The position numbers were made by a program, and so were the translations under genes. This document shows positions 17,105-22,148 of a DNA stretch of 32,000 nucleotides, in pieces; position 1 is the stretch's first letter, and each line of letters starts with the position of its first letter. The notes under the pieces were generated by a model. It did not search any database, was not told where the DNA came from, and worked only from the letters and a program-made list of their open reading frames with translations. This stretch comes from Brasilonema angustatum HA4187-MV1 (GTDB lineage: Bacteria > Cyanobacteriota > Cyanobacteriia > Cyanobacteriales > Nostocaceae): assembly GCA_019359695.1 (NCBI GenBank), contig JAHHGV010000002.1:334534-366533 (forward strand), given 5' to 3'.

Positions 17105-17764
17105 ATGCCAATTACTGTAGAACCCAGCAGCTTATCTCTCAATGACGTTCATCGCCTGCTGAAATTGCAAAAGCAGTCAAATGGTTTATTTACAGACTTT
17201 TTAACTTTAGAACCTCTCACGGATTTTGAACAGCAAGATTTATCGCGAATTAGGAGCGACTTTGAACGTTACTTTAACGCAGGTAAAATTTCAGAAGGAT
17301 TAGTTAAATTTTTGACGCTAGCACCTTTGATGCGATTGGCAGGATTCTACGATACTCCAATTCGCCTGACGATGGAAGATGTAATAGCGATCGCCATCGA
17401 AGATGAAGATATAAGCATTAGAGGACGGATGGATATTTTAGCAGTCAACAACGCTCAAGCAACTACCGTGCCACCTTTTTGGATTTTAGTGATTGAGACG
17501 AAAAATAGTTTAGTTGAGGTATTTGAGGGTTTACCGCAATTACTGAGTTATGCTTTTAAGAGTTTAGAGCAGCAAACATCAGTTTGGGGACTGGCGACAA
17601 ACGGACTGCGTTATCAGTTCGTACATTTAAAACAGGGAACTCCCCCAAGTTATCAGTTAATGCCCTCACTCAGCCTGAATGAGTCTGAGGCTTCAATTCG
17701 GTTGTTGCAGGTTATGAAAGCAATTTGCCAGTTAGAGAATTTTCAGGTGAAAGCGCCAGCCTGA
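17105..17764 (+). CDS. PD-(D/E)xK fold protein, type I restriction enzyme R-subunit N-terminal-like (HSDR_N)
   Basis: 'GRMDILAV...FWILVIETKNS...QLLSY' fits the D...E-x-K nuclease core of stand-alone HSDR_N proteins, which are common in cyanobacteria. Confidence 0.65.
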   Translation: MPITVEPSSLSLNDVHRLLKLQKQSNGLFTDFLTLEPLTDFEQQDLSRIRSDFERYFNAGKISEGLVKFLTLAPLMRLAGFYDTPIRLTMEDVIAIAIEDEDISIRGRMDILAVNNAQATTVPPFWILVIETKNSLVEVFEGLPQLLSYAFKSLEQQTSVWGLATNGLRYQFVHLKQGTPPSYQLMPSLSLNESEASIRLLQVMKAICQLENFQVKAPA

Positions 17765-17849: not shown

Positions 17850-18281
17850 ATGGAACCATTAACCGCAGGTGCGATCGCAACTCTCGCTTTTACAAAAGCC
17901 TTTGAAAAGACTATTGAAAAATTCACCGAAGCAGCACTCGTCAAGATGGATAAGCTGCGGAAAAAGATTTGGGACAAGTTAAGAGGAAACATCAAAGCAG
18001 AAACTGCGCTTGCTGCTGCTGAAAAAGGTTCCAAAGCTGATTTAGATACGGTAACCGCTTATTTGCGGGTAGAAATGGATAAAGATGAGCGATTTGCTCA
18101 AGATGTGCAAACTCTTGCCAGAGAAATCCATCAAGAAATCAACATTGGTAAGATTTCAGGGCAAAATGTTCAAAATGTCTATGGTGGCGAAGCTTATCAA
18201 AATAATGATAGTAAAGCGCCTATCTTTCAAGGCGTAGATAATAGCCCAATTACTATCCATTACAATACTCCCCCTACTTGA
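17850..18281 (+). CDS. N-terminal module of a split NLR-like protein (helical domain + Q/N/G-rich tail)
   Basis: ATG at 17850 (the track uses TTG at 17835). It reads 'MEPLTAGAIATLAFTKAFEKTIEKFTEAALVKMDKLRKKIW...' and then 'INIGKISGQNVQNVYGGEAYQNN'. It ends at TGA 18279-18281, in the same frame as the NB-ARC ORF. Confidence 0.55.
   Translation: MEPLTAGAIATLAFTKAFEKTIEKFTEAALVKMDKLRKKIWDKLRGNIKAETALAAAEKGSKADLDTVTAYLRVEMDKDERFAQDVQTLAREIHQEINIGKISGQNVQNVYGGEAYQNNDSKAPIFQGVDNSPITIHYNTPPT
18279..18281 (+). other. single in-frame TGA separating the N-module from the NB-ARC/TPR ORF
   Basis: 17835, 17850 and 18396 share one frame. The 38 codons at 18282-18395 are open and encode LQSSERERTKLNPPKSIPYRGVANFVGRQQELAALHEK, and they contain no ATG, GTG or TTG. 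Confidence 0.9.
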
Positions 18282-18395
18282 CTACAGTCGTCCGAACGGG
18301 AACGGACAAAGTTAAATCCCCCTAAATCTATTCCTTACCGAGGCGTCGCCAACTTTGTCGGACGACAACAGGAACTTGCTGCACTGCATGAAAAA

Positions 18396-20708
18396 TTGCA
18401 GAAACCTGGTACTGTGGCAATTTCTGCGATTGCTGGTATGGGGGGTGTGGGTAAAACTGAACTGGCGACACAATATGCACACCAGCATGAAGCACATTAC
18501 TCTGGTGGAATTTGCTGGTTAAATGCCAAAGAAGCGAATCTAGCGGCGAAGATTGTACAGTTTGCCCAATTCTACATGAATCCGGAAGTACGGCAGCGAA
18601 GTCTCCTAGAACAGGTAGAATGGTGCTGGCAAAACTGGCAACCTGCAGAAGGATTGGTGTTGGTTGTCTTGGATGACATCACCGATTTAAAAGATTGGAA
18701 GAATTGTCAACAGCTACTACCAACAGATAACCGCTTCCGCGTTTTAATCACAACGCGACTGCGAAACCTCGACGCCGATATTCAGGAATTACCTCTGGAT
18801 GTGCTGTTACCAGATAAGGCTTTGCAATTATTGACTGATTTGGTGGGTGAAAAGCGGGTATCTCGTAATGTGGAGACGCAAAATTTTGCGTCTTCATTAT
18901 GTGAATGGTTGGGATATCTCCCTTTAGGTTTGCAACTGGTGGGGCGATATTTACGAGAAGATCCAGATTTGTCTTTAGCCGAGATGTTACAGCGGCTGCA
19001 AATGCAGCAACTGGAAGATAAAGCGATCAACCCCACAACACGCGGAGTAAAAGCCGCATTTGAATTAAGCTGGCGAGAACTTGACTCAATGACACAGCGT
19101 GTGGGTGAGTTGTTAAGCTTGTTTGCCCAAGATGTGATTCCTTGGAAACTGGTAGAATCTGCTGCTGAGTTGCTGAGTTGGGCAAAGGCTGATGTTAACG
19201 AAGTGAAAAAGCAACTTTACAAACGCCACTTGATTCAACGGGTGGAAGAAGAAGAAGGCTGCTACAAAATTCACCCCTTAATTCGGCAGTTTTTGCAAGC
19301 CAAGCGAGAAACCTCACAACAACCCGACGAACTCAAACAAGCTTTTGCCTCTACCCTTATATCAATTGCCCAAGAAATACCCGGTTCTGTTACCCGTGAA
19401 TTTATTGAGTCAGTGCAAAATGCTATCCCTCATCTGACAGAAGTGGCACAAAATCTGATTGATGCGGTAGGGGATGAAGATTTAATTTGGGTTTTTAGAG
19501 GTTTAGGCGCATTTTATCAAGGACAGGGTTTGTATGCGCTAGCAGAACCTTGGTGTGAGCAGTGTTTAAAAGTAGTGCAGGCACGCTTGGGAGAGGAACA
19601 TTTCGATGTCGCCACTAGCTTGAATAAGCTGGCATTACTTTACGTGTATCAAGGACGCTACAGCGAAGCCGAACCACTTTTTGTGCAAGCTTTGGCACTC
19701 TACAAGCGCCTGCTCAGAGAAGAACATCCTGATGTCGCTATTAGTCTAGGGAAGCTCGCGTATCTCTATAAGTTACAAGGACGTTACAGTGAAGCTGAAC
19801 CGCTGTTTGTACAAGCTTTAGCACTACAAAAACGCCTACTTGGAGAAGAACATTTAGATATCACTGAAAGTCTTAATGATCTGACAGATTTCTACCGTTC
19901 TCAAGGACGTTACGCGGAAGCCGAACCACTTTGTCTGCAAGCCTTGGAACTCTGTAAGCGTCTGCTGGGAGAAAACCATCCAAAAATTGCTCTAATCTTG
20001 AACAACCTGGCATTACTCTACCAAGTTCAAGGACGTTACGCGGAAGCCGAACCACTTTATTTGGAAGCTTTGGCACTAAGCAAACGTTTGTTGGGAGAAA
20101 ACCATCCAAATGTCGCTTTCATCTTGAACAATCTGGGATTACTCTACTACTATCAAGGGCGCTACACTGAAGCTGAACCGTTATCCCTACAAGCAATAGA
20201 AATAGATAAACTATTTTTAGGAGAAGAGAATCCTGATTTTGCTACAGACCTTCACAATTTAGCATTGATATACCGCGCTCAAGGGCGATACAGCGAAGCA
20301 GAAACGTTGTTTGTGCAAACCTTGAAACTACGGCAGCGTTTATTACCAAAAGATCATCCGCTTGTAGCAGATAACATCTACGCTTTAGGTAAGCTCTACA
20401 GACAACAGGGGCGTTATAGCCAAGCTGAACCTTTTTGTATAAAAGCATTGGAACTTGATAAACGCCTACTGGGAGAAAATCATCCCAATGTTGCTGAAAG
20501 TCTCAATAACCTGGCAGAACTCTACTGTTCTCAAGGGCGTTACGTGGAAGCAGAACCTTTGTATGAGGAAGCTTTAGAGATTTATGAGCAGGTTTTTGGG
20601 CAGAACCATTCAAAGACAGTTAGTGTCAGTGAAAATTTAGAAAATCTCCGGGCTAAAGTGAATGCTAGTAATTCTTGGTGGGGCAAACTTCTAAAGTTTT
20701 GGCGATAA
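18396..20708 (+). CDS. STAND NTPase: NB-ARC domain + 9 kinesin-light-chain-type TPR repeats
   Basis: Walker A 'GMGGVGKTELA', Walker B 'LVLVVLDDI', then 9 x 42-aa 'GRYSEAEPL..QAL.L.KRLLGE.HP.VA.SLNNLA.LY..Q'. The TTG at 18396 is only a track start, because conserved coding sequence continues upstream to 18282. Confidence 0.85.
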   Translation: MQKPGTVAISAIAGMGGVGKTELATQYAHQHEAHYSGGICWLNAKEANLAAKIVQFAQFYMNPEVRQRSLLEQVEWCWQNWQPAEGLVLVVLDDITDLKDWKNCQQLLPTDNRFRVLITTRLRNLDADIQELPLDVLLPDKALQLLTDLVGEKRVSRNVETQNFASSLCEWLGYLPLGLQLVGRYLREDPDLSLAEMLQRLQMQQLEDKAINPTTRGVKAAFELSWRELDSMTQRVGELLSLFAQDVIPWKLVESAAELLSWAKADVNEVKKQLYKRHLIQRVEEEEGCYKIHPLIRQFLQAKRETSQQPDELKQAFASTLISIAQEIPGSVTREFIESVQNAIPHLTEVAQNLIDAVGDEDLIWVFRGLGAFYQGQGLYALAEPWCEQCLKVVQARLGEEHFDVATSLNKLALLYVYQGRYSEAEPLFVQALALYKRLLREEHPDVAISLGKLAYLYKLQGRYSEAEPLFVQALALQKRLLGEEHLDITESLNDLTDFYRSQGRYAEAEPLCLQALELCKRLLGENHPKIALILNNLALLYQVQGRYAEAEPLYLEALALSKRLLGENHPNVAFILNNLGLLYYYQGRYTEAEPLSLQAIEIDKLFLGEENPDFATDLHNLALIYRAQGRYSEAETLFVQTLKLRQRLLPKDHPLVADNIYALGKLYRQQGRYSQAEPFCIKALELDKRLLGENHPNVAESLNNLAELYCSQGRYVEAEPLYEEALEIYEQVFGQNHSKTVSVSENLENLRAKVNASNSWWGKLLKFWR
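19527..20650 (+). repeat. 126-bp coding tandem repeats (TPR units)
   Basis: Nine units. Units 4 and 5 share an identical 31-mer, CAAGGACGTTACGCGGAAGCCGAACCACTTT, at 19902-19932 and 20028-20058, exactly 126 bp apart. Confidence 0.85.
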
Positions 20709-20765: not shown

Positions 20766-22148
20766 TTACTGACACTTTTGCGCTGATGAGAGAGTTTTCA
20801 ACCCCACCTTTGCCGTTCCATACAGCCGACTAAACTCTTGCTCGTAATGCGCCGCTACGATGGGATTTTGTATAGCTATTAAAGTTTCATCATTCAAATA
20901 GTTCCCGGCATTAGACCAGTTATGGCTACCAGTAATCACCAATGTGTCATCTAAGATTGCCATTTTACTATGAACTGCGCGATCGCCCATTAAGCCTGTA
21001 GGAAAACCCACAGTAGTAATTGGATGCTTCCAAGGTTTCACTGTTATGAAGCTACGTTTCTTACCTACACGAGGACAAACACCCATTGCATCGTATGCTT
21101 TGGAGTAACTTTCTCTAAAAAAATCCGGATCTATTAGAACTTTTATGTCTTCAACACCTTGATCATGCACACTACCAAGAGTGTCACTAATCTTTTGATC
21201 CGAAAAAACAAACACCGCAATATGTACACTCTTTTTAGCTTGCTCTAAATAAGAGGCAATCATTCCATTACTAGTTCTTGTTATATCATCTTTTTTGCTT
21301 CTAGCTGGCGAAAAATTGACGGTGATAGTTCCTACTCCAACTGGAATTGTTACAGGAGATCTTTGTGGCTTATAAGATTTGAATACTCCCTGCCACATAT
21401 AATTAAATTCATCAGTAAAAGTTTTGGCAAGTTGAGGGTTATTAGGAACAACAACCATATTGTTGGGATTACCACGGCTGTCAAGATTTCCAAAATCTCC
21501 ATGCATATCAGATGTTGTCAGGTTAGCGCTAGAGATGATAGTTGTCTTTCCATCTACAATCACAAATTTATGATGCATAAGTCCACTGCCTTTTTTGGCA
21601 TTGTTAGATTTATCATCTTTGATTTCAATTCCAGATGAGTGCAACATAGCTAAAGCATCGGCTGGATAACGTTTTAATTCTTCATACGCTTGCTTATCAT
21701 GCCGATTCATCCGGGGAATTTCTGCTTGTGTATATTTATCTAAAGTTTTATTGTACTTATTATCTATTAATACTCTCACTTTCACTCCGCGTTTGCGAGC
21801 AACTGTTAGCGCTTCAGCAACTTTGGGAAGCCTAAACTCCATGACTGCTAAATCCACAGTTGAGTTTGCTTGGTTTATAGCGTCGATAATTTGCTGTTCT
21901 AAATTGTCTCCCTTACGGATAAAGTGACGGTATGGATCTTCATAGGAAGACGCTAAATTTTGATTGAAATAGACTTTAACAGCAGAGTCTTGAGGTAAAG
22001 GTTCAACAAGTTTTGTTTTTGGTGAAAATTTGAGGACGTTAACTAAAACAATCCCGCCAATAATAAAGATTGGTAAAAGAAAAATTGTCCTTCTAACAAC
22101 TTTAAAATGCTGTTTATCAGAAGTGATCAAATCTAATAGAAGTTTCAT
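20766..22148 (-). CDS. membrane-anchored phospholipase D-family protein (two HKD motifs)
   Basis: N-terminal anchor 'IFLLPIFIIGGIVLVNVL'. HKD motifs: 'HHKFVIVDGKTTIISSANLT' and 'HSKMAILDDTLVITGSHNWS'. Confidence 0.85.
   Translation of the reverse strand: MKLLLDLITSDKQHFKVVRRTIFLLPIFIIGGIVLVNVLKFSPKTKLVEPLPQDSAVKVYFNQNLASSYEDPYRHFIRKGDNLEQQIIDAINQANSTVDLAVMEFRLPKVAEALTVARKRGVKVRVLIDNKYNKTLDKYTQAEIPRMNRHDKQAYEELKRYPADALAMLHSSGIEIKDDKSNNAKKGSGLMHHKFVIVDGKTTIISSANLTTSDMHGDFGNLDSRGNPNNMVVVPNNPQLAKTFTDEFNYMWQGVFKSYKPQRSPVTIPVGVGTITVNFSPARSKKDDITRTSNGMIASYLEQAKKSVHIAVFVFSDQKISDTLGSVHDQGVEDIKVLIDPDFFRESYSKAYDAMGVCPRVGKKRSFITVKPWKHPITTVGFPTGLMGDRAVHSKMAILDDTLVITGSHNWSNAGNYLNDETLIAIQNPIVAAHYEQEFSRLYGTAKVGLKTLSSAQKCQ

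Follow-up and report, generated by a model that had tools for sequence, protein, structure and literature searches.

A conserved in-frame stop-codon cassette between Bell-like and NLR-like modules of filamentous cyanobacteria, a candidate for programmed UGA read-through

Results

The 32,000-nucleotide stretch of Brasilonema angustatum HA4187-MV1 analyzed here (the window; contig JAHHGV010000002.1, positions 334,534 to 366,533 of the forward strand) carries, on its plus strand, two coding sequences that share one reading frame and are separated by a single stop codon. The N-terminal open reading frame (N-ORF) comprises 143 codons from ATG 17850 to TGA 18279-18281. Past this TGA the same frame continues unbroken for 808 codons, to TAA 20706-20708, and encodes an NB-ARC/TPR protein (Table 1). 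The latter has the hallmarks of the STAND NTPases known as bacterial NLR-like proteins: an NB-ARC domain with a Walker A P-loop, followed by C-terminal repeats that form a superstructure. The start of the N-ORF is ATG 17850 and not the TTG 17835 chosen by the ORF-listing program; its homologues open with MEP. A first-pass annotation, made from the letters of the window, had assumed the same ATG, which this comparison upholds, and had described the N-ORF and the NB-ARC/TPR ORF as split only by TGA 18279-18281; its coordinates were reproduced. It had also reported that ATG, GTG and TTG are all missing from the 38 codons that follow the TGA, with which a recheck of the sequence agrees, and that TTG 18396 is the first possible start, which indeed lies 13 codons ahead of the P-loop glycine at 18435. 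Its proposal of one gene of about 950 codons is supported by the conservation of the TGA cassette and by the intact in-frame sensor ORFs described below. It was silent on the RNA hairpin, on the Bell-like domain and candidate amyloid motif of the N-terminal module (N-module), and on the use of the cassette with other modules.

Taken by itself, the pattern at the window locus could be due to chance. If uniform codon use is assumed, the probability that the two ORFs fall in a common frame (1/3) and that 38 codons are free of starts (~0.16) is ~0.05. The same junction recurs in 116 loci, however, which is far beyond chance as judged from the sequences. Homologues of the N-ORF number more than 300, almost all of them 139 to 147 amino acids long, and a profile search with the N-module returned 514 cluster representatives, mostly of 130 to 155 amino acids. 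One homologue, P0001 of Brasilonema angustatum HA4187-MV1, matches the window at 100% identity. Sixty-four genomic loci were fetched, from Scytonema, Nostoc, Tolypothrix, Calothrix, Rivularia, Fischerella, Brasilonema, Anabaena, Floridaenema, Thainema, Tumidithrix and others. The N-module terminates with TGA in 58 of the 64; there is one variant with TAG in place of TGA (L057), and it retains the hairpin described below. In 53 loci a GMGG-type P-loop follows the TGA in frame 0 with no further stop, and in four more the frame runs on into a variant P-loop or a different kind of NTPase. The TGA cassette in one frame is the common form of the N-module family in the Nostocales. Culturable carriers of the cassette include Scytonema sp. 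HK-05, Tolypothrix tenuis PCC 7101 and Rivularia sp. PCC 7116, and the genomes of the first two are complete. The base immediately 3' of the stop is C in 53/53 loci. Among flanking ORFs of at least 250 amino acids (n = 159), the stops are TAA in 79, TAG in 43 and TGA in 37, and TGA-C is the rarest stop signal, with two occurrences.

Several other explanations of an open frame behind a TGA were considered and rejected. Reassignment of TGA does not apply, since TGA ends normal ORFs in these genomes. Neither does ribosome hopping or frameshifting, as the sequences lack a matched pair of take-off and landing codons and stay in frame 0. P0048, a database protein, at first seemed to be a natural fusion whose Trp at the stop position would have revealed the inserted residue; its contig (L065, 917-919), however, has TGA followed by the hairpin, and the gene caller had read the TGA as Trp. 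Other database "fusions" that resemble P0048 may hide further recoded junctions. Three loci look degenerate and could be pseudogenes or assembly errors. L058 (from 4454) has a second in-frame stop 19 codons past the TGA, L055 (from 4415) has a frameshift ahead of the P-loop, and in L049 the N-ORF is frameshifted upstream of an intact cassette.

Sequence conservation around the stop extends well into the RNA that follows it. The three codons after the TGA are restricted to CTA/CTG, NAG and TCG/CCG. These are minority choices elsewhere in the same genes, where CTA and CTG together account for 27% of the codons for Leu, CAG for 29% of those for Gln, TCG for 7% of those for Ser and CCG for 11% of those for Pro; at the Ser position of the cassette, TCG is used in 39/39 cases. 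Behind the 8-nucleotide spacer CTACAGTC lies a 5-bp hairpin with the loop AACGGGAA, followed by a conserved flank, AAAGTTAAATCCC. In an alignment of 40 junctions, 98.5% of the cells of the stem are paired, versus 12 to 40% when the partner columns are slid against each other. Both sides of the stem have changed in 31 cells; one pair is CG in 22 and UA in 16 sequences, and another occurs as four pair types. RNAalifold independently predicts the same helix, and all five pairs are kept in 91 of the 94 junctions with the common geometry, across 18 stem variants. These compensatory changes alter the protein, with Ser or Pro at codon 4 covarying with Thr, Ala or Val at codon 9, which argues that selection acts on the RNA. 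The proportion of synonymous differences (pS) agrees: it is 0.17 to 0.24 in codons 1-14 after the stop versus 0.42 to 0.64 further downstream, and the ratio of nonsynonymous to synonymous proportions (pN/pS) in codons 1-14 is near 1. The low pS indicates a constraint at the RNA level.

When a covariance model was built from the junction alignment, every locus gave a single hit, without exception at the junction; the one in the window spans 18279-18311. An Rfam search of the junction returned no matching family. A possible outer helix would enclose the hairpin by pairing 18278-18283 (UUGACU) with 18310-18315 (AGUUAA), and these positions are paired in 85% across loci. Both sides of this helix (UGACU/AGUUA) are invariant, so that there is no covariation across loci; should the helix exist, it would keep the stop codon sequestered in free mRNA.

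The linker, the first 28 of the 38 start-free codons after the TGA (LQSSERERTKLNPPKSIPYRGVANFVGRQQELAALHEK), has the properties of translated sequence from codon 15 on. The Pfam match to NB-ARC begins at residue 29 after the stop (GRQQEL). A start at TTG 18396 would truncate the domain, because the match begins some 10 codons earlier, and this TTG probably serves as an ordinary Leu codon. Among loci the first in-frame start lies anywhere from codon 4 to codon 71, and in L009, L037, L042 and L044 the first canonical start is the Met within the P-loop itself. From codon 15 on, entropy at third positions is roughly double that at positions 1 and 2. Codons 15-33 have a pN/pS of 0.41 to 0.47 with high pS, and among 18 sequences whose first 33 codons lack a canonical start the ratio is 0.47. 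This indicates that codons 15-33 are translated and under purifying selection even where no start precedes them. No promoter-like or terminator-like site was found on the plus strand between the two ORFs. Given selection on start-less codons and the absence of such sites, ribosomes would have to arrive through the cassette. Two Nostoc-type loci (L025, L026) carry a 7-codon insertion, MSTTGYA, just ahead of the P-loop strand, with the frame kept.

The AlphaFold2 model of the N-module has five helices, at residues 6-18, 27-44, 48-58, 62-78 and 80-105, with a predicted local distance difference test score (pLDDT) of 74 to 93. The protein of the window begins MEPLTAGAIATLAF, and M1, E2, T5 and A6 are invariant or nearly so across the family. 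The Bell domain, as described by Dyrka et al. (2020; bioRxiv 10.1101/2020.01.06.895854), is a helical bundle of about 100 amino acids within a protein of about 120 to 140, with a hydrophobic N-terminal helix and a "MEPIS"-type N-terminal motif, acidic at position 2 or 3. The N-module matches this description, with a five-helix bundle of about 100 amino acids in a protein of 143, a hydrophobic first helix and E2. Moreover, the module is also found at the N terminus of NLR-type proteins (P0246 and P0266, both Bell-NB-ARC-TPR, and L059). Its tail, which ends GQNVQNVYGGEAYQNNDSKAPIFQGVDNSPITIHYNTPPT, is rich in Gln, Asn and Gly and is 45% identical to the tail of a Bell protein from Leptothoe. The paired motif that characterizes BASS-type systems is absent from the window, where the tail occurs in one copy and the NLR part has none. 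The label PF20701, precomputed on two homologues, could not be reproduced and was discarded. In P0125 and P0183 the same Bell-like module and tail are fused directly to TIR-like domains and to regions of CHAT-like appearance, recognized by eye from DVFFSYSHKDE and IIHFSGHG.

The Leptothoe relative has a different layout. In Leptothoe sp. PORK10 (L063, 3983-7139) there are two genes and no cassette: the Bell protein ends with TAA and the NLR has its own ATG. The first 44 residues of this NLR repeat the Bell tail, with 65% identity over 37 amino acids, and such a tail duplication is the defining layout of amyloid signaling pairs. True fusions, with neither stop nor cassette, are represented by P0246, P0266 and L059, the last of which also has no tail motif.

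The cassette is not confined to the N-module family. A scan of metagenome contigs for the exact pattern gave 58 matches, about two of them chance-like. The cassette also stands 3' of other Bell-like modules, with tails ending in KNVFQGNTFNGTNIF or TIDQRNSTFNI. In L098 (cassette at 1610-1642) the upstream module is of the alpha/beta-hydrolase type and about 300 amino acids long (Abhydrolase_6, DUF676). On the downstream side it precedes NB-ARC sensors, NACHT sensors and sensors with no recognized domain. No viral contig carries the cassette, and a phage origin was therefore rejected.

Two neighbors of the window locus were also inspected. Upstream, at 17105-17764 (+), a 219-amino-acid ORF has weak PD-(D/E)xK and HSDR_N nuclease-like matches. 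Its synteny is confined to the closest loci (L001-L003, L007), and it was rejected as a component of the system. Homologues of it (34% identity) adjoin the cassette loci L099 and L115 in divergent orientation. Downstream, a convergent 460-amino-acid ORF at 20766-22148 (-) has two matches to models of the PLD-type nuclease DrmC of DISARM, the better with E = 5.6e-16. The DrmC-like and nuclease-like ORFs suggest that the neighborhood is a defense island.

Table 1. Features of the window locus (window coordinates)
Feature	Coordinates	Strand	Remarks
N-module ORF, predicted short product	17850..18281	+	143 codons plus TGA
Bell-like helical domain, residues 1-101	17850..18152	+	From AlphaFold2 and the Bell description; N-terminal hydrophobic helix begins MEPLTAGAIATLAF
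Disordered Q/N/G-rich tail, residues 102-143 (...GQNVQNVYGGEAYQNNDSKAPIFQGVDNSPITIHYNTPPT)	18153..18278	+	pLDDT < 50; candidate amyloid signaling motif
In-frame TGA, proposed recoding site	18279..18281	+	Conserved across loci
8-nt spacer CTACAGTC	18282..18289	+	Invariant C right after the stop; part of the CTR NAG YCG context, which runs to 18290
RNA hairpin	18290..18307	+	Stem GTCCG 18290-18294 with CGGAC 18303-18307; loop AACGGGAA 18295-18302, with conserved GGGAA
3' flank AAAGTTAAATCCC	18308..18320	+	Conserved; may pair with TGACT
Linker, TGA to start of Pfam NB-ARC match	18282..18365	+	28 codons, no start codon
NB-ARC NTPase domain	18366..19070	+	PF00931, E = 3.9e-21; residues 29-263 after the stop
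TTG, first canonical in-frame start	18396..18398	+	About 10 codons inside the NB-ARC match
P-loop GMGGVGKT	18435-18458	+	Walker A, inside NB-ARC
TPR repeat array, sensor part	19599..20651 (approximate)	+	TPR_10, E = 1.4e-102; TPR_12, E = 9.6e-96
TAA ending the long product	20706..20708	+	951 residues, including one inserted at the TGA

Discussion

The features of the junction are those expected of programmed read-through: a conserved stop followed by an open in-frame extension, a start-less extension under coding selection, and a leaky stop context with a structure 3' of it. UGA followed by C is a well-documented weak termination signal in bacteria (PMC5289835). In viral read-through, UGA-CUA is combined with a structure about 8 nucleotides downstream, which is thought to lie at the mRNA entry channel when the stop is in the A site (PMC13517186). 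We consider it probable, on these comparative grounds, that the locus is a single recoded gene, in which UGA read-through yields an abundant effector and a rare effector-sensor fusion. A broader proposal, which we hold to be an even call, is that UGA-C, the 8-nucleotide spacer and the hairpin constitute a portable read-through element, independent of selenocysteine. Such an element would join cell-death effectors to STAND/NLR sensors and set their stoichiometry, with the fusion seeding an amyloid-competent effector.

Read-through itself, its rate and the inserted residue, and likewise amyloid templating, membrane killing and a role in defense, are what we infer in the following scheme. Ribosomes would initiate at ATG 17850 and make the Bell-like domain and the Q/N/G-rich tail, and the majority would stop at the UGA and release the 143-residue effector. 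Bacteria terminate least efficiently at UGA followed by C. While the UGA occupies the A site, the hairpin 8 nucleotides past the stop would sit at the mRNA entry channel, and a minority of ribosomes would insert an amino acid and traverse the start-less linker into the NB-ARC-TPR part, giving the 951-residue fusion. The efficiency of read-through would fix the ratio of sensor to effector. By analogy, the rare long form would sense a trigger and oligomerize, its clustered tails would take an amyloid fold, and this fold would template the abundant short form, releasing its hydrophobic first helix, which would then damage the membrane and so kill the cell. The scheme parallels that of two-gene Bell/BASS-NLR pairs (HET-S/NWD2 type), here encoded in a single frame.

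A number of observations weigh against this scheme. Comparison of orthologues at the stop, which the first-pass annotation had recommended, bore it out in finding the TGA conserved, but no homologue has a sense codon there, be it Cys or any other, from which the inserted residue might be read, once the Trp of P0048 had been recognized as an artifact. The hairpin is short, at 5 bp, and single-sequence folding of the window junction gives a structure no more stable than shuffled controls (z = 0.05), so that it is covariation that carries the case for it. All cassettes are homologous; the frame shared by TGA and sensor is then one inherited property and not a set of independent coincidences, and for this reason we dropped a count of shared frames across loci as independent events. 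We know of no hairpin demonstrated to stimulate read-through on bacterial ribosomes without the selenocysteine machinery. The N-module family was absent from Pfam, NCBIfam and PADLOC searches (Pfam and NCBIfam have no Bell model), and Foldseek of its AlphaFold2 model against the PDB gave no significant match; as modeled, the module fits the Bell domain by description. The hydrolase-type module of L098 has no Q/G-rich tail, and hence not every cassette-linked module fits an amyloid model. Finally, the amyloid step is drawn by analogy with HET-S/NWD2 and with Bell/BASS-NLR pairs.

An arrangement of two cistrons, with an ordinary UGA stop and an NLR translated by reinitiation or by non-canonical initiation in or just after the cassette, seems unlikely to us. 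It would give the hairpin a role as an initiation or coupling element, its purine-rich GGGAA loop being Shine-Dalgarno-like, and it would accord with the Bell and NLR genes of classical pairs, which are often closely coupled or overlapping, and with the GTG or TTG present somewhere in the linker of many loci. However, those codons fall at variable, ordinary Leu or Val positions, and loci differ in where the first start lies. Cassette codons 1-14 are free of ATG, GTG and TTG in nearly all loci, and four loci have no start ahead of the P-loop Met. Codons 15-33 are under purifying selection in sequences with no earlier start, and use of TTG 18396 in the window would cost the first 10 residues of the NB-ARC match. 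Moreover, the invariant TGA-C is left unexplained. The first-pass annotation had offered read-through or reinitiation as one option; the read-through half has gained support from the TGA-C context, the synonymous constraint, the covariation of the hairpin and the selection on the linker, whereas reinitiation is poorly supported. It had also reasoned that a single ancestral gene would be refuted by orthologues consisting of two separate genes with their own starts, and such a pair occurs only in the distant Leptothoe L063, with the cassette absent and the tail duplicated on the NLR. We regard as improbable a stop that is absolute, behind which the sensor ORF is normally silent and the cassette serves as a recombination junction for module swapping or as a switch opened only by mutation or by an induced suppressor. 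The same stretch of about 45 nucleotides does link unrelated modules on both sides, and gene conversion would also produce the very low pS of the cassette. Yet compensatory stem changes point to selection on structure and not to mere homogenization, and no locus has been caught with a sense codon at the site. In addition, sensor ORFs of 400 to 1300 codons are open and under purifying selection, which implies that they are expressed regularly.

The position of the hairpin invites comparison with selenocysteine insertion: a UGA with a small hairpin within about 10 to 30 nucleotides, and G residues in its apical loop, is the general layout of a bacterial selenocysteine insertion sequence (SECIS), and the UGA would then encode selenocysteine in the linker. 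This we judge very improbable. The selenocysteine-decoding trait was not detected in Cyanobacteria (PMC1794560; PMC9312934; PMC1273633), and no tRNA gene is present in the window. Rather than a redox motif, the surroundings of the UGA are a disordered linker between domains; Cys occurs at the position in no homologue, and L057 keeps the hairpin behind a TAG. The invariant C and the constrained spacer point instead to an effect of termination context. A recent nonsense mutation or a sequencing error, both raised in the first-pass annotation, would be in keeping with the appearance of the window locus taken singly, and can be dismissed with near certainty. Across many genera and assemblies, 116 junctions have this TGA; since its TGA-C context and hairpin are conserved and the downstream ORFs are intact, neither a fresh pseudogene nor an error of sequencing can account for it.

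Programmed read-through of the UGA, the reading that we prefer, has partial counterparts in several known systems. The closest in protein architecture are the Bell/BASS and NLR pairs of filamentous bacteria (Dyrka et al. 2020), the counterpart of fungal HET-S/NWD2. There too, a helical protein of about 140 amino acids, with a hydrophobic N-terminal helix, an acidic residue 2 and a Q/N/G-rich tail of about 40 amino acids, is encoded directly upstream of an NB-ARC/TPR protein in a filamentous cyanobacterium, and the relative in Leptothoe has the canonical paired motif. The window locus differs in its single copy of the motif, in a start-less NLR placed in frame downstream of the conserved UGA-C and its hairpin, and in a sensor that would bear the whole effector at its N terminus. 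To be picked up by the published BASS screen, an NLR had to carry a matching motif on its annotated N terminus, and the screen is therefore expected to have missed cassette loci. Bab/Agp of Escherichia coli (bioRxiv 10.1101/2024.11.07.622273) is also among the closest amyloid-signaling systems. The all-in-one Bell-NLR proteins (P0246, P0266, L059) have the Bell-NB-ARC-TPR order predicted for the long product; unlike it, they are encoded with no stop and no cassette, and L059 also has no tail motif.

At the RNA level, the nearest resemblance is to viral read-through of the Beier-Grimm type II (UGA-CUA/UGA-CGG), as in murine leukemia virus gag-pol, alphavirus nsP3/nsP4 and Colorado tick fever virus. 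Like the cassette, these have a leaky UGA-C(UA) and, beyond about 8 nucleotides of spacer, an RNA structure, and they derive a major short and a minor extended product, at a fixed ratio, from one frame. In contrast, the host here is bacterial, with RF2 and 70S ribosomes; in place of a pseudoknot or a long stem there is one hairpin of 5 bp; and the genes, known here from sequence, are cellular and present in many copies. Bacterial SECIS recoding shares the UGA and a close downstream hairpin with G residues in its apical loop; it differs in that the phylum is reported to have no selenocysteine decoding, the site has neither Cys homologues nor a redox context, a TAG variant exists and the termination context is constrained. 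Weak termination at UGA is also exploited by the coat/A1 gene of phage Q-beta and by prfB, the latter with exactly UGA-C. The context is UGA-A in Q-beta, however, and prfB undergoes a +1 frameshift dependent on a Shine-Dalgarno sequence; neither site has a conserved downstream hairpin.

To our knowledge, programmed stop-codon read-through is not established for bacterial genes, selenocysteine insertion and a phage coat protein excepted, and we know of no RNA structure described as stimulating read-through on bacterial ribosomes. A full-text literature search on read-through with NLR, NACHT, NB-ARC or cyanobacteria found no description of such a junction. Nor do the main comparative studies of bacterial NLRs, of Bell/BASS and of conflict systems mention this stop, read-through or the hairpin, and that of Dyrka et al. 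(2020) has no mention of stop codons or read-through. Leaky UGA-C, 3' stimulatory structures and Bell-NLR signaling are each known; the three seem not to have been described together in cellular genes of bacteria.

If correct, the proposal would provide the first structured read-through signal in bacterial cellular genes and a new architecture for amyloid-based immune signaling. The NLR genes of these genomes are now annotated with arbitrary internal starts or as fragments. The cassette is short, abundant and highly conserved, and would serve as a tool for producing proteins at fixed ratios. It would explain how many amyloid-tailed cyanobacterial Bell proteins are coupled to NLR sensors that have no matching motif, and it suggests a simple means by which a dangerous sensor-effector fusion may be kept rare while a pool of effector stands ready.

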